DNA of 64,000 nucleotides from Candidatus Poribacteria bacterium (GTDB taxonomy: Bacteria > Poribacteria > WGA-4E > PCPOR2b): assembly GCA_965208325.1 (NCBI GenBank), contig OZ242326.1, forward strand, positions 480,001 to 544,000, given 5' to 3'. A program made the position numbers and the translations under genes. Below, in pieces: positions 14,101 to 40,036 of this stretch (position 1 is its first letter; every line of letters starts with the position of its first letter). Below the pieces are notes generated by a model that had not been told where the DNA came from, ran no database searches, and saw only the letters and a program-made list of their open reading frames with translations.

Positions 14101-15332
14101 TTGACAGTGTTTGGTTCGCGGTGGAATGGCTGGGATTGGCTCGATATAATAAAGCCTCAAACGACTGGACATTCTTCGATGAAAAAAATGGTCTTGCAAG
14201 CGGCGAGCTGCATGAGCACTCGATAGTCGTCGATGAAAACTATGTCTGGGTGGGAACGGCTGGTGGATTGGGTCGGTATGACATTGAGAGTGAGGTCTGG
14301 ACGACTTTCACGCAGTCGCCATTAACGCCGATTGGACGTGCTCCAAAAGTGTACGCCATTGCGGCTGAAGCGCGTTTTGTGTGGTTGGGAACCGCAAACG
14401 GCCTGCATCGGTATGACAAAGATACAGGCCGATGGTACTCCCCGCGACCAATGGGAAGACACGGTGAAATGGTGAATAATCCAAGCATCGCAAGTATTGC
14501 AATTGACGAAAAATATGTTTGGCTAGGTACTAACGAAGGTGTCTTGCGGTATGATAAGGCCGGAGACTACTGGGAAGTGTACACAGATGAAAACGGTCTT
14601 CCATCCAACGCTATCCGAGATGTGGCAGTCAAAAGCTACGAAGTGTGGATTGCGACGAATCATGGTGCCGCGGTATTCAACCGACTCTCAGACGATCCAA
14701 ACACTTGGGAGCCGCACACACAGGAGCTGGAAATCAAAGGGATGCAAGATGTCAAAAAGTACGCACAGACGCTGTTGAGCAATGATGTCCGGTGCATCGG
14801 CGTCGGCGCTAGGTCTATATGGTTCGGTACGGACAAAGGCGCCTGCCGCTACGATAGAGAGAAAAAAACATGGAAACCCTTAATTGCAAATATTGCATCT
14901 TCATCACAAATTGCCGGATTCTCAGAGTCTCACGCCCATCACACACCGAATATTGCCGACATCAGCGCAATCGCCGTTGATGAAGATTTTGTCTGGTTCG
15001 GCACCGAGCACGGCGCGATGAAGTATCACCTAGAATCCGGGAAATTCGACACGTTCACTCAATCGGACGGTTTAGCGGGAAATATCGTTACGTGTATCGC
15101 TCTCAACGACGAGGAAATCTGGTTCGGATCGGCGAACGCGGGGGTCGCACGTATGGATAAAGCCACAGGTAAATGGCGCGTCTTTGACACAAGCCATGGT
15201 CTGCTCCACAATCGAGTGGAAGCCATCGCGTTTGACGGGGACCAGCGGTGGTTCGGCACAGAGCTTGGACTGTGTCGGTATGATCCAAAAACCGAAACAT
15301 GGACAAGTTATGCGGAGGGTTTCAATCCTTGA
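11193..15332 (+). CDS. Giant secreted multi-beta-propeller protein, paralogue 2
   Basis: Sec signal MFRQVHKILGFMILLSVGNGLA|Q after GAGAGG RBS; 29 blade motifs collinear with paralogue 1. Confidence 0.85.
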   Translation: MFRQVHKILGFMILLSVGNGLAQGSENVQRKFHVAERPAADNQLLSDRVLSLAVDSRYVWVGTDRGLSRYDKLRGEWDNFTVKDGLAHNTVVSIALDSDLAWIGTRDGVSRFDVHTNTWTRYMPRDGLAGRIISCVAVDSRFIWFGTPNGLSRYDKETNSWAQKREKDGLAGDAVTRITIDEDYIWIGTRNGISRYDKLTDSWNNYDKNSGLVDNRVTAIAADGNLVWFGTEEKGLSLYDRRNSDFVRTYTKKDQLASDHIRALAADGTSLWLGTADRGVQRYILSVNTWQQYTVLNPEKTENTAPTGLISNHITAIAPDGNMVWFGTHEHGLARHDLLSGTWKFYGEVKALSDNDVKDVAVTDESVWVATRFGLNQASYPEVAEFSTGCDWRTFRKADGLADNYITCVLQVEEDVWVGTPSGLGLRHGDEGEWVFFSTKDGLPHDFVTCLAWQPAARDTEKQNSWESPGNVKGKTDGSTQSGFDSRLWIGTKAGLSTYEPQSRQWNTHPSPLQISGRVSDIVFGGDFVWIATEYGLVYYDGTSGESGKLTVKDGLPADMINTAAIGNRSIWVGTLSGLSQLSKSSFKTRSHASATHLPRSNVRAVAVDGKDVWVGTPSGLYCVAGDAFTHYTRESTDGGLVSDNVKAIEINGGKVWVGTTAGFSVLDKHGKKWSKHAAAATTEVLRSNWVSKLTEDGTDIWFGNWNDSADGAIVKYDRRTDTFQFFDKDDLPLKPAGRPITHIHVLTVGENGVWAGTNGGLLRYDKTKDSWRHYTVYDGLPNNEVWSIIFDSPYVWTAHIGGVVSRYSMAMDEWTSFEISPSETWSGVGSMAVDPQYVWVTTMWDGLKRYEKSTGTWTNVTEVHGLGDNEANDLLVDGEHVWVTGWGDASRYNRRTGEWNVFSRWRVLSGPNIYLSRGLNGVWLAYPWLSWGDAIASKFHNKSGSWTTLKVPEIEGGYFGRTMQVVESIDSVWFAVEWLGLARYNKASNDWTFFDEKNGLASGELHEHSIVVDENYVWVGTAGGLGRYDIESEVWTTFTQSPLTPIGRAPKVYAIAAEARFVWLGTANGLHRYDKDTGRWYSPRPMGRHGEMVNNPSIASIAIDEKYVWLGTNEGVLRYDKAGDYWEVYTDENGLPSNAIRDVAVKSYEVWIATNHGAAVFNRLSDDPNTWEPHTQELEIKGMQDVKKYAQTLLSNDVRCIGVGARSIWFGTDKGACRYDREKKTWKPLIANIASSSQIAGFSESHAHHTPNIADISAIAVDEDFVWFGTEHGAMKYHLESGKFDTFTQSDGLAGNIVTCIALNDEEIWFGSANAGVARMDKATGKWRVFDTSHGLLHNRVEAIAFDGDQRWFGTELGLCRYDPKTETWTSYAEGFNP

Positions 15333-15365
15333 CGGTCCAAGGATTTCCAGCAGAGAAATGACAAT

Positions 15366-18300
15366 ATGAAGAAACAGGTGAAATGCACCATACAGATTTT
15401 GCATTACTTATTGCTAATCTCCCTGATCGGGAGCGGTTTGGCTCAGCTTAACTCACAGGACGAAAAATCGGCTGTTCTTGAGGAATCGGCCCTTGCCCAA
15501 CTGGCATCAGAAAATACGTTGGTGAGCGATAACATCCGCTGCGTTTCAACTTCAGCCGACTACGTTTGGGTAGCAACAGACCGAGGCGTCAGCATCTACC
15601 ATAAGGCGGATAGCCGCTGGACGAAGTTAGATTGGGAAGACGGTTTAGTCTCGGACGATGTCACAGCGTTGTCCGCCGATCGAGAGTTTCTCTGGGTAGG
15701 TACAACTCTGGGAATCAGCCTATACAACATAGAGAATGGCAGTTTGACGAAGTTTCAACGGCGCGACGGTTTAGCAAGCAACAAAGTCACCGCAATCGCT
15801 GTGGACGGAAATTACACCTGGGTCGGTACGGAGTCCGGTATTTCGCGTTATGATAAGACAACGGGTACATGGGCATTACAACGTGAGAAAGACAAAGATC
15901 GGTTTAACTCCATTACCGCAATTGCTGTGGAATCGGAGTATGTTTGGTTTGGTACAGAAAATGGACTACGGCGATACGATAAGTTAAAAGACGCATGGAA
16001 CGCATACACGAAAGAGGACGGGCTGGTGGAAAACCATGTCCGCTGTATTGCATTAAGCCCTGATTCTGTTTGGGTGGGAACAGAGAAATCGGGTGTGAGC
16101 AAATACAGTGTAGCCAACCAATCCTTCACCGAAAGCTATACGCGGACAGATCTATTGGAAAGCGATTTCATCAGGGCGATTGCCGTTGACGGCGACAATG
16201 TCTGGTTTGGTTCCGCGGACCGCGGTATTCGTCGGTTTATTTCAACGGTGAATACTTGGTTTAAGTACACGACTGGCAAGGGTTTAGTTAGCGACCACAT
16301 TTCTTGGCTGCATGTTGATGGCGGTCACATTTGGATCGGCACCTACGAGTTCGGTTTGGGTCAATTCGATAAAACGAACGATGGCTGGACATGGTATTCA
16401 AAGCGAGATTCGCTGGTGTCCAATCAAATCAAATCCGTCGTATCAACTGAGAAGGCACTCTGGATTGGTACGAATAAAGGCTTAAGTCGCTATGCACCTC
16501 AAAAAAAGTCGTGGAAAACGTTCACGAAGGCAGATGGTTTAGTAACAAATTATATTACGCATCTGACGAAGGGTGTGGATAATAGCACGATATGGGTCGG
16601 GACGCCACTGGGGTTAGGGGCACTAGTCGGAAAACAGTGGAGATTCTATACGGAAAGGCATGGACTGGCAAATGATTACGTTACCGGTATCAGTGCGGTT
16701 CCCGGTAAGATTTGGGTTGCGACCAAGGGGGGAGTGAGTTCTTTTTCCGTAACCGCAAACCGGGAAACTGGGATTGAACAGACTAGCGCATCAACAATTG
16801 GGCAAGACTCACCGCACGTTTCATCCGGCGTCACCCTTTATGATTCACAAACGTATCTTACAAGCAAGTGGGTAACCGCCGTGCTGGTGATTGGGCAAAA
16901 TGTGTGGGCGGGCACAACAGATGGGCTGTACCGGATAAACGATGAAACAGGTGAATTTGAGCCCGTTCTGGAAGTTAGGAATTATGTTAACGCACTTTCC
17001 TCTAGTGTTGATAGGCAATTGCTGGTTGGCACGCGAAACGGCTTGTGGATCATAGGTGGCGAAAAGTCATCACATATCACGGAGGGATTGCCGAACTTGA
17101 ATGTCAGGAGCGTCGCGGAAGACAACGGTACCATCTGGGTAGGAACTCCGGGCGGTGTTGCGCGTCTGAATGACGGAAACGTTAATCAGGTTATTACGAT
17201 GCAGGCTGCCGGTTTGCTTCACGATAATGTACGGAGCATTGTGGTCTCGGATCAGCAGGTTTATTTCGGTACTGCCGCCGGTCTCGCTATCTATAACGTA
17301 GAGAAAAATCAGTGGGAACAATATAAACCGTATTACGACACAGAAATCCTTAAAGAGGAGCAAATTCGTTGGATAGAGTTGGATGAGCACAATCTATGGG
17401 CTCTTAATTGGTCGTCTTCTCCGAATGGCGCAATATTAAAATTCGATCGGCGTACTGAGACTTGGATCGAATACACGAAATACGCTCTGCCTCTCTCTTC
17501 AAATGTCCCGTTTATCACCGAAATTCACCGCCTTGCGGTAGGTGAAGAGGATGTCTGGTTTGCCGCTGGAGACGGCGGCGTACTTCGGTACAATAAAGCA
17601 TCGGATACATGGACCCACATCACTATGCCCACTGGGATACCGGGGCACCAAGCTATGCTAATCGAGCTTGACGGACCGAATGGCGTTTGGGTTTCATTCC
17701 AAGGCGGCATAGCAGGGAAGTACGATACGCGAACGCAGCAATGGGAGACCGTGAAGGTGACAGATTCTGGTGCAGGAACGCGCATTGAGGACATTGCTTG
17801 CACAAACGACTACGTCTGGTTCGCTACAAATAGCGCAGGGGTCAGAAGATATGAACAAGCCACGCAAACCTGGAAATCGTACACAGAAGCGCAAGGTATG
17901 GCGTCGCGGTTTACTCCGTGGATTGACGCGGACGGCGAAGGCGTGTGGACTAGCGGCGGTACTTCTTGGTCATGGGTCAGTGACCGCGGGGTGCAAGGAG
18001 TGAGTTTCTATCGCCCAAAAGAAAACAGTTGGACATTTTTTGACCGGAGAAACGGTTTGCGTGCAGAGGCGACCGGATACGGACAGGTTGGCAAAGATTA
18101 TGTTTGGTGCTTTGGAGGGGAAGGAATCAACAGATACCATAAAACAAGGAAATCTTGGACTTCCTTCAATTCGAGCGATGGTTTGATAGTCCATAATGTC
18201 CGTGCAGTCGCAAGAGACAGTGACGGTTTCTGGGTAGGTTCGGATGAAAGCGGTATCTGGAAGTATGCGCAAGCCTCTGGTGCATGGACAGTGTTCACTG

Positions 18301-19448
18301 TTGAGGACGGTTTGATTGATGGCAGCGTCCAACCTTACGCGCTCAAAGTTGGTCCGGAACATGTGTGGGTTGGAACGTCACAAGGATTAAGCCGATACGA
18401 TAAGAGGAGGAGGACATGGATTTCGTTAATGAAGCCGGCCACATTGGCGGACCGCCGAGCCGTCTCTGTTGCTGCTGATAGCCAATTTGTATGGGTCGGA
18501 ACACACCGCGGCTTGAGTCGATACGACAAAAGGTACGACAGATGGAGACATTTTAGGACTGAAGAGCAAGAAAACGAGGATAATGGAGACGATGAGGACG
18601 ATAAAACTAAGCAAGAAAAAAGGAACCAACTGGTGGACAACAGTGTCGTAGATCTATCTGTCGGTGTACGGTACGTTTGGATCGCGACTGAAGGCGGGGT
18701 GGGCCGGTACGACAAAATCGCTAATCGTTTTGAATCGTATACCCACGAGAACCAACTGCCGAGCGTCGATATCCGAGCGGTTGCAGAGAATGAAAGCGAT
18801 GTGTGGATTGGGACGAAAAACGGTATTGGCAAGCACAGTATTCTTTCGGAAGATCGAAATGCCTGGGAAACATTTAACACTGCGATTGAAATCCTGCCAA
18901 CAGTGAAAGGTAAGTACGCTAAGAGCTTGGAAAATGATGACGTGCGATGCCTTGCAGTCGATGATTTTCGAGTTTGGGTCGGAACCAAAACGGGCGTGTC
19001 ACTCTATGAAATTGAAAAAGGGACGTGGAGTACCTTTACTCAAAAGGACGGGTTGGCAAGTGACGAGGTAAGTTGTATTACTTTTGACGAGGGGCGCGTA
19101 TGGTTTGGAAGCGGGCGCGGTGTGACAGTTTATGATACGGAAAATGATACTTGGAAGGTTCTTACGGAAGCGGATGGGTTGGGTTCAAATCTAATCACGT
19201 CAATTGCAAATCACCGGAGCCAAATCTGGTTTGGCACATTCGATAGTGGAGCCACTGTGTATGACAAAATCACCGGAAAATTCACGACCTTCACCAAAGC
19301 TGATGGCCTTCCTCATAATGGCATCCTGTCGATCGCGGCTGACGGTAACTGTCTCTGGTTCGGCACACACGGCGGGTTGACCCGATACGATTCTTTAGCT
19401 GGGACGTGGACAGTCTATACTGAGCGATTTGACTATGATGGGCTGTAG
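15366..19448 (+). CDS. Giant secreted multi-beta-propeller protein, paralogue 3
   Basis: Sec signal ending LIGSGLA|Q; 29 blade motifs collinear with paralogues 1 and 2; acidic insertion EEQENEDNGDDEDD. Confidence 0.85.
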   Translation: MKKQVKCTIQILHYLLLISLIGSGLAQLNSQDEKSAVLEESALAQLASENTLVSDNIRCVSTSADYVWVATDRGVSIYHKADSRWTKLDWEDGLVSDDVTALSADREFLWVGTTLGISLYNIENGSLTKFQRRDGLASNKVTAIAVDGNYTWVGTESGISRYDKTTGTWALQREKDKDRFNSITAIAVESEYVWFGTENGLRRYDKLKDAWNAYTKEDGLVENHVRCIALSPDSVWVGTEKSGVSKYSVANQSFTESYTRTDLLESDFIRAIAVDGDNVWFGSADRGIRRFISTVNTWFKYTTGKGLVSDHISWLHVDGGHIWIGTYEFGLGQFDKTNDGWTWYSKRDSLVSNQIKSVVSTEKALWIGTNKGLSRYAPQKKSWKTFTKADGLVTNYITHLTKGVDNSTIWVGTPLGLGALVGKQWRFYTERHGLANDYVTGISAVPGKIWVATKGGVSSFSVTANRETGIEQTSASTIGQDSPHVSSGVTLYDSQTYLTSKWVTAVLVIGQNVWAGTTDGLYRINDETGEFEPVLEVRNYVNALSSSVDRQLLVGTRNGLWIIGGEKSSHITEGLPNLNVRSVAEDNGTIWVGTPGGVARLNDGNVNQVITMQAAGLLHDNVRSIVVSDQQVYFGTAAGLAIYNVEKNQWEQYKPYYDTEILKEEQIRWIELDEHNLWALNWSSSPNGAILKFDRRTETWIEYTKYALPLSSNVPFITEIHRLAVGEEDVWFAAGDGGVLRYNKASDTWTHITMPTGIPGHQAMLIELDGPNGVWVSFQGGIAGKYDTRTQQWETVKVTDSGAGTRIEDIACTNDYVWFATNSAGVRRYEQATQTWKSYTEAQGMASRFTPWIDADGEGVWTSGGTSWSWVSDRGVQGVSFYRPKENSWTFFDRRNGLRAEATGYGQVGKDYVWCFGGEGINRYHKTRKSWTSFNSSDGLIVHNVRAVARDSDGFWVGSDESGIWKYAQASGAWTVFTVEDGLIDGSVQPYALKVGPEHVWVGTSQGLSRYDKRRRTWISLMKPATLADRRAVSVAADSQFVWVGTHRGLSRYDKRYDRWRHFRTEEQENEDNGDDEDDKTKQEKRNQLVDNSVVDLSVGVRYVWIATEGGVGRYDKIANRFESYTHENQLPSVDIRAVAENESDVWIGTKNGIGKHSILSEDRNAWETFNTAIEILPTVKGKYAKSLENDDVRCLAVDDFRVWVGTKTGVSLYEIEKGTWSTFTQKDGLASDEVSCITFDEGRVWFGSGRGVTVYDTENDTWKVLTEADGLGSNLITSIANHRSQIWFGTFDSGATVYDKITGKFTTFTKADGLPHNGILSIAADGNCLWFGTHGGLTRYDSLAGTWTVYTERFDYDGL

Positions 19449-33624: not shown

Positions 33625-36363
33625 TTACGGGTGTCGGTGCTGCACAAAACTCACGGGAATGAGTATCAGAAGAGCGGGGATTATCACCCATTTCCATTCT
33701 GTAAAGAGCGGTTCTATCCCCAGGATTGGATGTGCGTAAGGGAGATAGACAATAAACACGTGTAAACCCATGCACGCCAGAATAGTAATTAAAAGGGGCA
33801 CATTCGCAATGACTCTTTTGAGAAGGGATTGCCAAGGATGTCGATGGCATTGAAAGGTTGCGGCCAATTGTGTGAAGATTAAAATGGAACATGCGACTGT
33901 TTGCGCTTGAATCTGACCCGAAGATTGCAGCGTCGCCACAAACCCGACAATTGTCATGAGTGCAATCCAAAGGCCGCGAACTAGGATATCAAAGCGATAG
34001 TCTTTTGAAAGGAAGGGTGAAACATTATGGCTTCGGTTGTGCTTCAGCTGACCTTGTATTCGATCTTGGCCGAGCGCAATTAGCGGAAATAAATTGACGA
34101 GTAAGTGGATCCAGATGATGTGATGCAGAGTAAGCGGCATTGGGAATTCGCGCCACAACTGCAGGCCGGATCCGAGCTGAAGGATGAGTCCAATGAAAAG
34201 CGTGGTCATCTGCGCTAGCGTACACGTCAACAACCAACGCATAGAATTCTTAAGATTACTGTGAGCTTCACGCGCGTGAAGCAGCAGATCGGCAATGAAA
34301 CGAAACCCATCCTTAAGTATTAAACAACCCGCGTTATGTTGGATTACGGGCGACGTACATGACGCAGATGCAATACTGACATCAGCCGCTTCCATTGCCC
34401 TTGTATCGGTAGGTGCTTGTCCGCAAAAACCGACCGAATGATTGTTGTGTTTGAGTTTTTCTACCAGCTTAAGTTTTTGTTCCGCAGATGGGCTGCAATA
34501 TACAAGTAGCCGATTGGCAATCGAATCGTAATGCTCTTCGCTAAATTCGTCTAGATTTGAGCGGGATACAACAGCATTTCCATCCTGGATAATTCCAAAT
34601 TCTCGCGCAACATCTGTCGAATTTTCCTTGTCTTTTTCGGTAATCAGCACTACTTTAACACCTGCACCTAAGCAGAACTCAACACTCTCTTTAGAACCTT
34701 CATATTCCTGCTGTGAAAAGGCGACTAATCCCAAAAAAGTTAAGTTTCGACCTATTTCGTCTTGCGGCGGAAGGGAATTGCGACTTCGATAGGCGACGCC
34801 AAATACTTGGGCTCTGTTATCCGACAAATATTGAGCAGCTAGTCGAATCATCTGTTTTTGGTCAAAACTTATGCGATCCATGGATTCGCCAATTTGCATT
34901 CGTTGAGCGCCCTGTATTATAGCGTCGGGGTGACCAAACATAATATTCAAAAACCTGTTTTCTTGCGTTTCCAAAACAACTGCGTCAAAGGGCGGGCCTG
35001 CTGTTTCCGTTATTTCAGCGACTTTCGTTAAAGCTGCATCATAATGCTCTAAATCCAATCCGATTTGGTCCGCCAGCTTAATCAGTGCTTCAGCGACAAC
35101 ATCTTCCGACGGGTTTTGATTGATTAAGTCGCGGCGTTTGCCATGAGTCTTGCAAAGTGTCGCTAACAATATCAACAGTTGAAAACCAGGCGAGATTGCG
35201 CCATTCGGTGGCAGAGACGCATCTAATGTCTCGTCCGTCTCTTGTGGCACAGTCTCAGCATTCTTTAACCTATCTTCCCACGATTCTCTGTCGATGAGTT
35301 CTTCATCAATAAAAACACGAGACGTGGACATTTGCTCTTTTGTGAAATTACCAATCTCATTGACGCATACGGCTGTTATGCTGCTTAGCCGCTCAAGATT
35401 TACCACATCGCGAATACCAATGCCCTTTTTGAACAGTTTGTGAGCATTTCCTGCCAGAGTTGCCCGACACGTTGAAACTACCCCGTCGGGAATGGAAGCG
35501 AGTACAAACCCTAATCCAAGAAAAAGCAATGATTGCCAATTTTCCTCAAAACTTTTGCGTTGAAAGTACCAAGTCGCCAAGACCGCAACCCCTCCTAATA
35601 TCAGGCCGGTAATCTTAAATCGATTATAAACCGAGTCCATCTGAATCTCTGCTTCCGACTCCAAATTAAGCTCGGTAGGGGCACTGCGGTACGGTTGGTT
35701 GATTTCTAATTCTTCGCCTGTTCCGACGACTATGGCGCGTCCCTCGCCTTGTAACACATACGAGCCCGCAAAAACCATGTTAGCCTGTTTTTCAGGCGGT
35801 ACGGTCCTATCGGGCATGTCATCTGTTGTTTTTTGCGTTGACATCGACATGCCGAATAGCGGAGTTTCATCAACAACCAGATCGTCCGCGTCAACTATTC
35901 GCGCGTCCGCGGAGATGAAACTCCCTTCAGCCAAGACAAGCAAATCTCCCGGCACAACCGATTCGGGTGTGACATTTTCAAGTCGTGCATCTCGAATGAC
36001 CGAGACCGTAATTTTTAGACTGCGCTTAATTGATCGGCGATGCGAGCGGGATTTGCTATCTTGGAAAAACTGCCACAGCAAGTGCAAGAAGAGAACACCA
36101 AAAACTGCGATCGCCTTAAGAAGAGAGTGGTTGGGATAGGTATGGATGATTCCAACGATGACTAAAATAACAACTGTAACGCTAGTCAGTTGCCTTGCGA
36201 AGAAGGAAAGGATAGGCCTTTCATGGGATGGTAGAATTTCGTTGTCGCCGTATTCACCTCGCCGTGCACTTGCTTCATCAGCGCTCAACCCACGCTCAAG
36301 ATCGGTATTAAACTCGTGTAGAATATATGGAATTTTCTGGGTGTACCAATTTGATGTGTTCAT
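33625..36363 (-). CDS. P2-type (SERCA-like) cation ATPase homologue with degenerate catalytic motifs
   Basis: Cation_ATPase_N (GLSADEA..RRGEYGDNEI), VPGDLLVL, ISADARI, NMVFAGS, LTFLGLV and the expected TM layout; DKTGT is replaced by NEIGN. Confidence 0.9.
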   Translation of the reverse strand: MNTSNWYTQKIPYILHEFNTDLERGLSADEASARRGEYGDNEILPSHERPILSFFARQLTSVTVVILVIVGIIHTYPNHSLLKAIAVFGVLFLHLLWQFFQDSKSRSHRRSIKRSLKITVSVIRDARLENVTPESVVPGDLLVLAEGSFISADARIVDADDLVVDETPLFGMSMSTQKTTDDMPDRTVPPEKQANMVFAGSYVLQGEGRAIVVGTGEELEINQPYRSAPTELNLESEAEIQMDSVYNRFKITGLILGGVAVLATWYFQRKSFEENWQSLLFLGLGFVLASIPDGVVSTCRATLAGNAHKLFKKGIGIRDVVNLERLSSITAVCVNEIGNFTKEQMSTSRVFIDEELIDRESWEDRLKNAETVPQETDETLDASLPPNGAISPGFQLLILLATLCKTHGKRRDLINQNPSEDVVAEALIKLADQIGLDLEHYDAALTKVAEITETAGPPFDAVVLETQENRFLNIMFGHPDAIIQGAQRMQIGESMDRISFDQKQMIRLAAQYLSDNRAQVFGVAYRSRNSLPPQDEIGRNLTFLGLVAFSQQEYEGSKESVEFCLGAGVKVVLITEKDKENSTDVAREFGIIQDGNAVVSRSNLDEFSEEHYDSIANRLLVYCSPSAEQKLKLVEKLKHNNHSVGFCGQAPTDTRAMEAADVSIASASCTSPVIQHNAGCLILKDGFRFIADLLLHAREAHSNLKNSMRWLLTCTLAQMTTLFIGLILQLGSGLQLWREFPMPLTLHHIIWIHLLVNLFPLIALGQDRIQGQLKHNRSHNVSPFLSKDYRFDILVRGLWIALMTIVGFVATLQSSGQIQAQTVACSILIFTQLAATFQCHRHPWQSLLKRVIANVPLLITILACMGLHVFIVYLPYAHPILGIEPLFTEWKWVIIPALLILIPVSFVQHRHP

Positions 36364-36507: not shown

Positions 36508-37452
36508 TCATCTCATTCCACTATTCACGCACGAATTTGTTTGTTCTCCTATATCCACGGTTGCGCCGGTAGAATCAATTGATAGAATCTTAACGTTGCA
36601 GGACACACCGTGCATTGCAAAAGCTTGATTCATTTGATTAGCGATATTTTGCTCTTCCTTAATGCAATATGCGGCAACACTTGGCCCCGCGCCGCTGAGC
36701 GCAATCCCTAATGCACCTGCTCTCATAGCGGCTTCAGCAACGTCGTCAAATCCTGGTATGAGCGATTTCCGATAAGGTTGATGCAACCGGTCACGCATCG
36801 CGAACGGCAACAATTCTAGGTTGCCAGTTGCGAATGCAGCGACGAGTAACGAGCTGCTACTTACGTTGTGGACGGCGTCGCAAAATTTTACAGTGTCTGG
36901 CAAGACGCCGCGTGCCCGTTCTGTCGGCATCTGGAAATCTGGTATGGCTATGGCAACGGAAAGATTGGGATGACAATCCAATTTGATGGTGTGTACTCGC
37001 CCGTCAAGTGTGAGTGATACTACCAACCCTCCTAGAAGAGAAGCGGCAACATTATCTGGATGCCCTTCAAGTGCTGTTGCGAAATTGAGTAGTTGGTCTC
37101 GCGAAAATGGATCGCCGCAAAGCGCGTTAGCTGTCAATAAACCGCCGAGAATAGCCGTGCCGCTCCCACCTAACCCTCGAATCGCTGGGATGCCATTCTC
37201 TATACGCAATCTGAGTCCTCTGGGTTGGTAGCAGGTTTTTTCGAAAACCACATTTGCGGCGCGATAGGCTACATTATCAACATCTTTGGAAATAATTTGC
37301 GAATCAATCCCGCTAACGAGAATTTCAATGCCAGAATTAATCTCCTCGAGTTCAACCGTACTATAAAGTCGGAGGGCCAACCCGAGCACATCAAAACCAG
37401 GCCCCAAATTGGTTGTGCTTGCAGGGATCCGGGCGATTGATTTGCGCGGCAT
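36508..37452 (-). CDS. thrB: Homoserine kinase
   Basis: PASTTNLGPGFDVLGLAL, IPAIRGLGGSG, EGHPDNVA, DRLHQPYR, LSGAGPS. Confidence 0.96.
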   Translation of the reverse strand: MPRKSIARIPASTTNLGPGFDVLGLALRLYSTVELEEINSGIEILVSGIDSQIISKDVDNVAYRAANVVFEKTCYQPRGLRLRIENGIPAIRGLGGSGTAILGGLLTANALCGDPFSRDQLLNFATALEGHPDNVAASLLGGLVVSLTLDGRVHTIKLDCHPNLSVAIAIPDFQMPTERARGVLPDTVKFCDAVHNVSSSSLLVAAFATGNLELLPFAMRDRLHQPYRKSLIPGFDDVAEAAMRAGALGIALSGAGPSVAAYCIKEEQNIANQMNQAFAMHGVSCNVKILSIDSTGATVDIGEQTNSCVNSGMR

Positions 37453-37460
37453 AAATTTTC

Positions 37461-38630
37461 CTAGTTATTGATGCGTGAAATTGCCGCGTCCATGCGGACT
37501 AATGCTTCACTGATATTTTCTAAGGAATTTGCATACGAAAGTCTGATGTATCCGTCGCCGAATTTGCCAAACCCGGTACCAGACAATACGCCAACGCCCG
37601 CTTCTTCAAGCAGATAATCCTCTAACGCTTCGCACGACATTGGAACTTGCGAGACATTCGCAAAGACGTAAAAGGCGCCAAGCGGTGTGATACAACTGAT
37701 ACCATCAATGGAATTTAAACCTTCGACAATCAGATTACGCCGCTGCCGGAACTCGGTTACCATTTGAATAACGAAATCTTGCGGCCCTTTTAAGGCTTCA
37801 ATACCAGCTATCTGTGTGAACGAACAGGTACAAGAATTGGAGTTAATCATCAATTGCGTAATTTTATCCGCCATCGGTTTGGGTGAAATTCCGTATCCCA
37901 ACCGCCATCCTGTCATCGCATAGGTTTTAGAATGACCTTCAATAAGAATTGTCCGCTCCTTCATCTCAGGAAGGCTGATTATACTTTCATGGACACCTTC
38001 ATAAAGAATGCGCGAATAAACCTCATCTGTTAATACATAAAAATCGTACTTAATCGCTAATTCCGCGATGGCTTCGAGATCAGATTTTTCCAAAATACCG
38101 CCCGTTGGATTTTGGGGCGAATTGATGATGAGAAGCCGTGTCCGATCCGAGATTGCTGAGGCAAGATCTTCAATTCGGAAGCGGAAGCCAACGTCTTCAC
38201 GCAGCGGCAGTGGAACCGGCGTGCCTCCGACAAAGTTTATGACCGATTCGTAAATTGGAAAGCCGGGGTTGGGATAGATGACTTCACTTCCTGGTTCGGC
38301 GAGTGCGAAAATAGTAAAAAAGATAATGGGTTTGGCGCCGGGAGTAACTGCGACTTCTTCAGGATGGACTATGACCCCTCTGGTTTCTGAGATATGTTCC
38401 GCGGCGACTTCGCGAAACTCAATTAATCCCGCGGAGGGACCGTATCCGGTATATCCATCCTTCATCGCCTTATACCCCGCTTCGCAGATGTTCATCGGGG
38501 TATTGAAATCCGGTTGCCCAATTTCGAGATGTATGATATTCCGGCCTTTTGCCTCTAAGCCTTTTGCTTTTGCCAGCACTTCGAAGGCGGATTCAGTTCC
38601 TAGCCGACTCATTCGCTGCGCAAATCTCAT
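37461..38630 (-). CDS. PLP-dependent class I/II aminotransferase (aspartate aminotransferase-like)
   Basis: GQPDF, NSPQNPTG, TDEVY, SKTYAMTGWRLG, GAFYVF. Confidence 0.93.
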   Translation of the reverse strand: MRFAQRMSRLGTESAFEVLAKAKGLEAKGRNIIHLEIGQPDFNTPMNICEAGYKAMKDGYTGYGPSAGLIEFREVAAEHISETRGVIVHPEEVAVTPGAKPIIFFTIFALAEPGSEVIYPNPGFPIYESVINFVGGTPVPLPLREDVGFRFRIEDLASAISDRTRLLIINSPQNPTGGILEKSDLEAIAELAIKYDFYVLTDEVYSRILYEGVHESIISLPEMKERTILIEGHSKTYAMTGWRLGYGISPKPMADKITQLMINSNSCTCSFTQIAGIEALKGPQDFVIQMVTEFRQRRNLIVEGLNSIDGISCITPLGAFYVFANVSQVPMSCEALEDYLLEEAGVGVLSGTGFGKFGDGYIRLSYANSLENISEALVRMDAAISRINN

Positions 38631-38673: not shown

Positions 38674-39711
38674 TTATTCAGAATATTTCATTACGAAACC
38701 GTTGTTACCGGTAATCCAAATGTGGTTCGCGTCCAGAATAAACAGGTCGTTGACTGGAATTTTACTAATCATCGTCCCTTCAATGCTCTGGTTTTCCCAC
38801 GTTTTGCCGCCATCGATTGTATGAATTACGATGTTGATTCCCATATCGCCCCCAACTGCCCAACCCATCCTTTTGTCGACAAACTGCACGCTAGAGAGCG
38901 TTTCCTGCGTATTACTCGATTGTATTTTCCATCTATCGCCGCCATTTGTAGTGTGCAGCACAACGCCGCCTTCACCTACCGCCCAGCCGGTTGAGGCATC
39001 TATAAAAAATATATCTTTAAGGGTATCTTCGACATTTGTAAGTTGATCTGCCCAGGTTTTTCCACCATCCGTGGTTTTTTTAACGATCCCGTTTTGAACG
39101 CCGGCTTGCGGATTCACAAAAACACCCGCTATCCACCCGGTAGATTCGTCAATAAATTGTACGCAGTTGAACAATCCCTCTGGCTCCTCTCCAATTCGTG
39201 TGGGAAGTACGCCCCCTTGTAGGATATTCCATATTTTGCCTCCGTTAGTTGTTTGTAAGATGGTTTCTCCCATGCCCACCGCGTAACCGAATTCTTCGCT
39301 TACAAAGTGAATATCATACAACCAGTTGTCGACTTTACTAGTTTGGATATCCCATTGTTTGCCGCCGTTTGATGTCCCGACAATCATCCCATTCGCCCCT
39401 ACAGCCCAACCGTGCTTCTTGTCATAGAAAAAAACATTCGAGAGAATCTGATTGACGGCAATCTCCGCTTTTTCCCATGTCTTCCCGCCGTTCGTCGTAC
39501 GACCGATATAACCCGGATTCTCCATTTCCAAAGCTGAAACCCCGGCGACCCATCCTTCCCTCGCACTCACAAATATAATCGCATTATAATCTCGAATATC
39601 CTCATTATCCTGTTCCTGTAGAGCAAACCATTGTCCGTCGCCGTAAAGCGTGGTTGTCATGACCATTGATGCAAGCAAAAACGTTGTCAGAAACGCTGTC
39701 TTGATGTACAT
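38674..39711 (-). CDS. Secreted YCF48/BNR-repeat beta-propeller protein
   Basis: Signal peptide; repeated F.D...GWAVG..G.I..TTNGGKTW motifs. Confidence 0.88.
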   Translation of the reverse strand: MYIKTAFLTTFLLASMVMTTTLYGDGQWFALQEQDNEDIRDYNAIIFVSAREGWVAGVSALEMENPGYIGRTTNGGKTWEKAEIAVNQILSNVFFYDKKHGWAVGANGMIVGTSNGGKQWDIQTSKVDNWLYDIHFVSEEFGYAVGMGETILQTTNGGKIWNILQGGVLPTRIGEEPEGLFNCVQFIDESTGWIAGVFVNPQAGVQNGIVKKTTDGGKTWADQLTNVEDTLKDIFFIDASTGWAVGEGGVVLHTTNGGDRWKIQSSNTQETLSSVQFVDKRMGWAVGGDMGINIVIHTIDGGKTWENQSIEGTMISKIPVNDLFILDANHIWITGNNGFVMKYSE

Positions 39712-39742: not shown

Positions 39743-39771
39743 AGTATAGCACCCATCGCGGTTGCTGTCAA
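39743..39771 (-). promoter_or_regulatory. Sigma70 promoter for the YCF48-aminotransferase-thrB run
   Basis: Minus strand TTGACA, 17 nt, TATACT, with extended -10 TG. Confidence 0.8.
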
Positions 39772-40036
39772 GCACAAACAAACCTTGATCTATGCGAAGC
39801 ATATTTCCCAAGGGAGCGTTGCGTCATTTTAGGCAAATTCCAATTATTGTCAAGAAAATTATTCAAAGTTCCGTTTTTGTTTGCACCGGTGTATACAGCC
39901 CATGATTTCAGCTTCGGTTTGATGGCAGTCCAAGGCTATTCGCTGTATAGGTTATTGAGGTTTAATATCGGGAAACCAGCGGTGTGCACGCATTGTAATA
40001 GTGGGATTCGATGACATTCGTAAGGAGGTAGGATAC

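Follow-up and report, generated by a model that had tools for sequence, protein, structure and literature searches.

We describe an intact gene for a P2-type ATPase homologue that carries none of the motifs of a working pump. The gene lies in a 64,000-nucleotide stretch of the genome of a Candidatus Poribacteria bacterium (contig OZ242326.1, positions 480,001 to 544,000; hereafter the window), and we refer to its product as the pseudo-pump. P-type ATPases are defined by an aspartyl-phosphate cycle. Alignments to solved and canonical pumps show that the residues assigned to ATP binding, autophosphorylation, dephosphorylation and cation coordination have been lost from this retained homologue, and we infer that the protein would be unable to run the ATP-driven E1/E2 (Post-Albers) cycle and would work without ATP. 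The gene is inherited vertically, occurs in a single copy and belongs to a family of P2-type ATPase homologues without catalytic motifs that extends throughout the phylum. Its product is very probably a retained, non-catalytic protein, and on balance we favour, with clearly less assurance, an ancient pseudo-pump that now serves without ATP, probably in the role of a locked scaffold or sensor.

Sequence properties of the pseudo-pump

The gene is one uninterrupted open reading frame (ORF) with an ATG start and 912 codons, and its product follows the full P2-type layout of an N-terminal domain, membrane helices M1-M2, the A domain, M3-M4, the P and N domains and M5-M10.

33625..36363, minus strand: pseudo-pump gene, 912 aa plus stop (ORF listing, Pfam, AlphaFold2, Foldseek)

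Three Pfam models scored above their cut-offs, E1-E2_ATPase (PF00122, 92.8 bits against 28.1), Cation_ATPase_C (PF00689, 76 bits against 27.3) and Cation_ATPase_N (PF00690, 57.8 bits against 20.4). The HAD 'Hydrolase' model PF00702 fell slightly short (25.6 bits against 26.4) and the N-domain model Cation_ATPase (PF13246) also stayed below its cut-off (13.7 bits against 21.7). Among the NCBIfam models only the generic P-type model TIGR01494 was exceeded (90.1 against 62.3); the top ranks went to PMR1-type TIGR01522 (227.7 against a cut-off of 798.3) and SERCA-type TIGR01116 (187 against 703.4), both far below. The closest solved structures found with phmmer were human SPCA1 (8iww, E 2.9e-58) and Listeria LMCA1 (9euq, E 9.5e-57). 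Homology and fold, that is, the A- and M-domain models and the ten-helix architecture with A, P and N domains, place the protein within the P-type ATPase superfamily. The initial annotation of this DNA had described an uninterrupted 912-aa P2-type ORF in which every functional motif is replaced; the ORF listing, Pfam and the SPCA1 alignment confirm the first of these descriptions, and each substitution that it listed recurs in the alignments to SPCA1 and to canonical pumps.

To place the substitutions we used a phmmer alignment to SPCA1 8iww together with MAFFT alignments to canonical bacterial pumps, and the motif columns were read in a MAFFT alignment of 57 family cluster representatives and 60 canonical pumps. 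The motifs NEIGN, GQAPTDTR and FGMS were additionally re-read straight from the DNA. The sites, all on the minus strand, are the following.

35845..35856: A-domain loop FGMS (170-173) for TGES (SPCA1 and family alignment, DNA re-read)
35479..35490: M4 PDGV (292-295) for PEGL (SPCA1 and family alignment)
35347..35361: phosphorylation-site remnant NEIGN (335-339) for DKTGT (alignments, DNA re-read)
34924..34938: N-domain FGHPD (476-480) for KGAPE (family alignment)
34633..34641: P-domain TEK (575-577) for TGD (SPCA1 and family alignment)
34474..34476: K630, HAD motif III Lys, canonical SPxxK Lys column (family alignment)
34399..34422: GQAPTDTR (648-655) for GDGVNDAP (alignments, DNA re-read)
34207..34227: M5 TCTLAQM (713-719) (family alignment)
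34084..34107: M6 HLLVNLFP (753-760) (family alignment)

DKTGT, TGES, TGD and GDGxND were found in none of the 57 family representatives, and their key residues are present in all 60 canonical pumps. At the phosphorylation site the Asp column reads N in 35 representatives, D in 17, E in three and S in two, and the window protein has no phosphorylatable Asp there; Glu (E336) stands in the neighbouring Lys column in 54 of 57, and neither Thr column has been retained. The Asp column even flips among close relatives, reading N, N, N and S in the window's genus (g1), while genus g7 shows D apart from a single N. As relatives may have N, D, S or E in this column, a carboxylate is not required there. 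In the A domain F170 occupies the TGES Thr column in 54/57 representatives, and the catalytic Glu of this dephosphorylation loop is present in none.

The nucleotide site has been altered as well. The ATP-contacting Lys of KGAPE is replaced by Phe (F476) in 51/57 representatives, and the nucleotide-contact columns of the canonical N domain (DPTE, PF, R and K), of which DPTE, PF and R are at least 90% conserved in canonical pumps, are unconserved in the family, leaving neither the KGAPE Lys nor the adenine pocket. In the P domain the first TGD column keeps T or S in 56/57, the Gly has turned into E or D in 53/57 and the Asp is lost. The first Asp of GDGVNDAP reads Q in 39 and K in eight representatives, the second (D653) is kept in 56/57, and the Pro of NDAP has become Arg (R655) in 52/57. 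Mg2+ and phosphate coordination by TGD and GDGxND is consequently reduced to two survivors, the Thr (T/S) and the last Asp. Considered as a HAD core, the family has lost the motif I Asp in 40/57 sequences as well as the first motif IV Asp, with PF00702 just under its cut-off, and has kept the motif II Thr/Ser, the motif III K or R (K630) and the second motif IV Asp in 56/57 each. E336 and R655 occur jointly in 52/57 representatives, and R655 is absent from each of the three sequences that have no E336; these three are basal branches and therefore not independent cases, and the co-occurrence fits a direct pair between the two residues.

The membrane ion sites have changed as well. The M4 Pro is kept in all 57 representatives, and the Glu column of PEGL is distributed over Q (23), E (12), D (7), Y (6) and H (3), with D293 in the window protein. 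In M5 the Ca-site Asn has become T715 (column T in 41, S in 10) and the Glu has become Q718 (column Q in 30, L in 25). In M6, N..TD reads H753..V756 N757, with Q (33) or H (19) at the Asn column and T (28), N (21) or S (6) at the Asp column. The former ion-site columns are thus mostly polar (M4 Q/E/D/Y/H; M5 T/S and Q/L; M6 Q/H and T/N/S), and neither the acidic and amide ligands of M4, M5 and M6 nor an equivalog-level score, as a P2A Ca2+-ATPase would have them, was found.

Distribution of the family

We compared the protein with 5.8 billion proteins in a word-indexed search and with 1.84 billion cluster representatives in an exhaustive HMMER search. The former returned 50 full-length relatives at 32-91% identity and 490-1913 bits, one of them bearing the source name Candidatus Poribacteria, and below this family the scores fell abruptly to ordinary P-type ATPases (285 bits, ~25% identity). 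The HMMER search showed the same gap, with seven full-length family representatives at 405-1635 bits plus two fragments, and canonical pumps from 281 bits. Across the family as a whole, length is conserved at identities of 23-91%. An ESM Atlas search gave generic P-type ATPase clusters only and no entry with a structure, and a homologue search for longer proteins found no longer or fused relatives at E <= 1e-60, which is weak evidence.

With the pseudo-pump protein as query and a threshold of E <= 1e-20, we obtained a match in 175 of the 176 genomes of the phylum and, within the order, in 157 of the 158 other genomes (families f1 28/28, f2 11/11, f3 7/7 and f4 111/112); the lone order genome without a match is 81% complete. 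Nearly all genomes have exactly one match, and in the 149 order genomes for which the places of the matches are listed, every listed match is free of internal stops. Outside the order, the families f6, f7 and f9 of the class also match at E ~1e-131 to 1e-139. The best matches in families f5, f8 and f10 are merely 24-26% identical; the four of these divergent copies that were read (G005, G011, G014 and G001) lack every motif, and the f5/f8/f10 copies coincide with or resemble the DKTGT-less representatives P0131, P0135/P0142 and P0166/P0182/P0261. The sole match in G003 (f11) is a canonical pump, and G001 holds a canonical DKTGT/TGES pump fragment alongside its motif-less copy.

Motif loss is common to these orthologues. 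We read 42 genome-derived rows, from which that of L048 was dropped on account of a different, longer ORF having been picked, and all 41 usable sequences lack DKTGT, TGES and GDGxND. Together with the 57 representatives, they bear out the expectation of the initial annotation that orthologues would share the loss. In an IQ-TREE analysis of 57 rows (LG+C20), a branch with an SH-aLRT support of 99 separated all 33 canonical rows from all 24 motif-less rows, a topology compatible with a single loss of the motifs.

Selection and predicted fold

To estimate the constraint on the gene, we calculated pairwise ratios of nonsynonymous to synonymous substitution (dN/dS; Nei-Gojobori, NG86) among four genomes of the window's genus, for the pump and for the genes of its array.

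Pump: dN/dS 0.10-0.24 (dS 0.32-1.07)
thrB, the adjacent gene and our yardstick: dN/dS 0.11-0.19
Aminotransferase: dN/dS 0.07-0.11
BNR gene: dN/dS 0.07-0.15

A ratio below 1 had been predicted for the orthologues, as these values confirm. Nine segments of the pump are all constrained (dN/dS 0.04-0.43), the lowest ratios (0.04-0.09) being those of the 34 residues around the former phosphorylation site. By these codon comparisons, purifying selection is acting on all domains of the pseudo-pump. The gene therefore fits the description of a pseudoenzyme, an enzyme homologue without catalytic residues that is under purifying selection; the loss of activity itself is predicted from the sequence.

Conservation within the family peaks in M5-M6, where the mean top-residue frequency is 0.65. 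Relative to canonical pumps, constraint in the family is lower in the P domain and M1-M4 and higher in M7-M10, where 18 positions are at least 90% conserved as compared with five in the canonical set; here one phylum is set against pumps of many phyla, and nothing beyond the shift in profile should be read into the comparison.

From a family alignment of 52 sequences, AlphaFold2 predicts a complete pump fold with a mean predicted local distance difference test (pLDDT) score of 84.3 and a predicted template-modelling (pTM) score of 0.77; two N-domain loops and the termini are the only poorly predicted parts. The top Foldseek matches of the model are Na,K-ATPase, SPCA1, SERCA and LMCA1 (E 1e-44 to 1e-49). 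Family-fixed residues are also found between the M6-M7 and the M8-M9 helices of the model.

Possible role of the pseudo-pump

The initial annotation had suggested that the protein is retained for a non-enzymatic role, and the shared motif loss and the dN/dS of 0.10-0.24 make this the best reading, with the exception of one of its sub-options, the regulation of an active pump, which is discussed below. How the protein might work may be outlined as follows. Polar residues of nearly the same shape have taken the place of the ion ligands and neutralised the sites (E to Q, D to N or T, N to Q, H or T), which would hold the helix bundle packed without bound cations. The former catalytic centre has been rebuilt with the E336-R655 pair, the A-domain loop with F170 and the N-domain loop with F476, while T575, K/R630 and D653 were kept; such a centre could either be self-satisfied by the E336-R655 pair or bind a small ligand or Mg2+ as a signal. 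What seems to matter is the shape of the fold and its docking surfaces, those of M7-M10 and of the cytoplasmic loops being available for partners. We prefer a scaffold or sensor because of the neutralised ion sites, the rebuilt centre and the shift of constraint towards M7-M10 and the fixed inter-helix residues, although within the pseudo-pump reading a scaffold or sensor is only about as likely as not.

Several points weigh against this interpretation. The genomes are related, so that counts across them are not independent. The tree search was a quick one and the P0131 branch is very long; long-branch attraction could have aided the appearance of a single origin. An Asp persists at the phosphorylation column in 17/57 representatives, and with the HAD motif II, motif III and second motif IV residues retained, the P domain may still bind phosphate, a metal or a nucleotide. 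Four of the five former ion-site columns are still polar, which would suit a transport path too, and the constraint profile is subject to the limit given with it. Finally, the model superposes better on open E1-type states (TMq 0.75-0.79) than on E2 states (0.57-0.61); an E1-like model lends no support to a glued, compact headpiece, even though a predicted conformation is weak evidence either way.

A more specific version of the sensor is a tentative proposal to which we assign a minor share of the probability. According to it, the pump fold was converted at or near the base of the phylum into an ATP-independent membrane device, in which the rebuilt site would sense a cytoplasmic ligand or Mg2+ and signal through the coupling of the A, P and N domains to the polar membrane cavity or to a partner protein. 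The site would consist of the E336-R655 pair, T575, K/R630, D653 and the new acidic residues at 576 and 578.

A minor probability also goes to a passive conduit or transceptor, in which the polar, uncharged cavity would pass or bind water, the head group of a lipid or a solute with little or no charge without ATP, with the headpiece as gate or regulator. The polarity of the ion-site columns in most members, the high conservation of M5-M6 and the invariance of the kink-forming M4 Pro (57/57) would agree with such a path, and so would the lipid that a cryo-electron microscopy (cryo-EM) report places between M3, M4, M5 and M7 of TMEM94, a motif-poor pump-like protein (PMC12134183). However, the M5 Glu column is a hydrophobic Leu in 25/57 representatives, nothing points to an opening of both gates without the phosphorylation cycle, and polar residues would be needed anyway to satisfy the unwound backbone of M4 and M6. 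Nor do the neighbouring genes, thrB and an aminotransferase, give a clue to a substrate.

We consider it very unlikely that the protein is a working enzyme of unorthodox chemistry, phosphorylated on another carboxylate such as E336 or acting as a phosphatase-type HAD enzyme. It does retain T575, K/R630 and D653 (HAD motifs II, III and part of IV) in 56/57 representatives and has acidic residues fixed at 336 and 576, in the region with the lowest dN/dS (0.04-0.09). Yet 40/57 representatives have N, S or E in the nucleophile column, which flips within genera, the TGES Glu is missing from all 57, the ATP contacts of the N domain are gone and the Pfam HAD and N-domain models stay below their cut-offs. 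Moreover, we know of no HAD enzyme with its nucleophile at the +1 position.

Just as improbable is an accessory or regulatory subunit that would form a heteromer with an active P-type paralogue. Pseudoenzymes often regulate active paralogues, and the basal genome G001 does hold both the motif-less form and the fragment of a canonical DKTGT/TGES pump. In contrast, the complete 4.71-Mb single-contig genome from which the window was taken has only two P-type loci, the pseudo-pump and a CopA-type P1B pump with canonical motifs, and no active P2-type paralogue was found among them.

G000:C1:2401607-2403925 (L001 796-3114), outside the window: CopA-type P1B pump, 772 aa, with an N-terminal metal-binding domain, CPC, DKTGT, TGES and GDGIND

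A second match to the pseudo-pump query at E <= 1e-20 was obtained in just two of the 158 other order genomes (G029 and G158), that of G158 being a 512-aa contig-end piece with 46% identity. These results do not support the idea of the initial annotation that the protein regulates an active pump.

A decaying gene that is open in this genome by chance, an idea for which the two broken-gene remnants ~1 kb downstream, past lexA, might be invoked, was rejected as having a negligible probability, given that the frame is open in every orthologue listed, that dN/dS is 0.10-0.24 at dS up to ~1.07 and that the family keeps its length over 23-91% identity.

Genomic neighbourhood

Upstream of the pseudo-pump gene lie three genes on the same strand.

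36508..37452, minus strand: thrB (homoserine kinase), TIGR00191 268.3 bits against a cut-off of 168.25, 144 bp upstream of the pump
37461..38630, minus strand: class I/II aminotransferase, aspartate-aminotransferase-like, member of the conserved array
38674..39711, minus strand: Ycf48-like BNR beta-propeller, hydrophobic segment at the N-terminus, opens the conserved array

The array of BNR propeller, class I/II aminotransferase, GHMP kinase (thrB) and pump, all on the same strand, was found in 13 of 15 Pfam-annotated loci, the exceptions being G044 and G022, with gaps of 7-154 bp between thrB and the pump. Related array loci are L037-L050, L058 and L060, and the four-gene array is kept across most of the order. 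Among the 138 genomes in which the places of both genes are listed, the BNR gene lies at most 7 kb from the pump in 113 (f1 7/28, f2 8/11, f3 5/5 and f4 93/94); in genus g7 the two genes are 22-31 kb apart. On the deep branches, the pump copy of G011 follows the aminotransferase-thrB pair and that of G005 directly follows the BNR gene, with no aminotransferase-thrB pair between. Identities at this depth are 24-26% for the pump, 44% for thrB, 55% for the aminotransferase and 39% for the BNR protein. Because the array context is retained in G011 and G005, the very divergent pump copies are best regarded as orthologues.

Two sigma-70-like sites, each matching 11 of 12 hexamer positions, lie at 39743-39853 on the minus strand, just 5' of the BNR gene, and none as strong precedes the pump. 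The number of such sites is not above that of shuffled sequences (promoters 9 against a mean of 11.3; terminators 9 against 8.2), and co-transcription of the array is no more than a hint. A search for sequencing runs gave four entries from one study, none of them recorded as RNA.

Two functional links to the neighbours were considered and not adopted. A threonine-kinase/threonine-phosphate-decarboxylase pair of the cobalamin pathway was dropped, as thrB is an ordinary equivalog and the aminotransferase a general one of the aspartate type. The BNR/Ycf48-like protein, suggested by the conserved array and by its position right beside the pump in G005, was not adopted as a partner, as neighbourhood alone is insufficient, the genes of g7 are 22-31 kb apart and the periplasm-facing gaps between the helices of the predicted model comprise few residues.

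The genes downstream of the pump are variable, and among the annotated loci a LexA gene follows it only in the window genome (G000) and in G035. Beyond lexA, the segment 30800-32628 (minus strand) holds remnants of two genes with ~3.7 kb deleted between them; in the sister genome G035 both genes are intact and encode proteins of 1165 and 672 aa. The last ~500 aa of the 1165-aa PD40/Ig/Por_Secre_tail protein remain in three frames (32289-31573, 31562-31299 and 31288-30800), and the first ~90 aa of the 672-aa BNR/PD40 protein remain at 32628-32352; the 114-aa and 248-aa ORFs of this segment are pieces of the 1165-aa gene. The decaying pseudogene that had been reported next door is thus real, in the form of frame-shifted remnants, but it does not directly adjoin the pump, as lexA lies between.

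Other arrangements were observed beside the pump in further genomes. In loci of f4, a gene for a DUF6785/DUF6784 protein of 650-682 aa lies convergent to the pump and immediately after it (L044 6362-8311, L045 6433-8478, L046 6304-8274 and L047 11292-13262). In G034 (L038 11149-13692) and G033 (L039 5314-7884) the pump is adjoined by an ORF of 848-857 aa, whose C-terminal third matches the archaeal-type fructose-1,6-bisphosphatase FBPase_3 and whose N-terminal ~550 aa match nothing at the threshold used. In L048 (G101), an ORF of 190 aa and one of 113/114 aa form three tandem pairs downstream of the pump at 14469-19112 (minus strand), without a Pfam match among the models scanned; the same locus also holds a 2424-aa open frame.

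Significance

A complete machine of ~900 residues that has been kept through the history of a phylum without the aspartyl-phosphate cycle would demonstrate a second, ATP-independent use of the fold. In these mostly uncultured bacteria it is probably a core function and not a regulatory add-on, because the family is universal and single-copy in the order and most of the genomes have no active P2-type pump. Members are labelled in databases as 'Ca2+-transporting ATPase' or 'cation transporting ATPase C-terminal domain-containing protein', and metabolic reconstructions that credit a calcium pump on the basis of such labels are probably wrong. The residues F170, E336, F476 and R655 are direct targets for mutagenesis and structural work. 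If the ligand-sensing device described above were true, it would represent a stand-alone pseudo-pump with its own function, the first from bacteria, and a tractable model for motif-poor pump look-alikes such as TMEM94.

Comparison with known systems

The nearest characterised relatives are the P2A Ca2+/Mn2+-ATPases, represented by human SPCA1 (8iww/8iwp/7yag) and Listeria LMCA1 (9euq/6zhf). They give the best sequence matches (E 2.9e-58 to 1e-56) and share with the pseudo-pump the domain order, the length and the predicted fold (TMq up to 0.79), as well as VPGD, the ADxR column, the M4 Pro and the hinge Gly residues. Unlike them, the pseudo-pump is only ~20-25% identical, scores far below the equivalog cut-offs of TIGR01522 and TIGR01116, and has DKTGT, TGES, TGD, GDGxND, the KGAPE Lys and all acidic Ca2+ ligands replaced.

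In the open-access and bioRxiv literature we found no description of a catalytically dead bacterial P-type ATPase, nor a relevant passage in the 2023 Palmgren review, in agreement with the remark of the initial annotation that no bacterial example had been characterised. Eukaryotes provide two partial parallels. Human TMEM94 (ERMA) combines ten membrane helices with three cytoplasmic counterparts of the A, P and N domains, and lacks TGES; its cryo-EM structures were near-identical in six conditions, neither nucleotide nor Mg2+ was seen at the proposed site, and the study found the protein to be without ATPase activity (PMC12134183). Its catalytic status is disputed, and a later paper argues for a true Mg2+ ATPase (PMC13322241). 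TMEM94 resembles the pseudo-pump in its ten helices, its A/P/N-like domains and the missing TGES, whereas it is eukaryotic and much larger and still has an Asp at the proposed site, a likeness at the level of the superfamily.

The second parallel is the apicomplexan guanylate cyclase GC-beta, in which a degenerate P4-ATPase-like domain is reported to be kept within a working protein and a regulatory role is discussed (PMC6592433). That domain, as described there, is eukaryotic, of the P4 (flippase) type and fused to cyclase domains, whereas the Poribacteria gene stands alone. With both precedents that we found, TMEM94 and GC-beta, being eukaryotic, what appears to be new in the pseudo-pump family is a stand-alone, bacterial, phylum-wide pseudoenzyme branch of the P-type ATPases.

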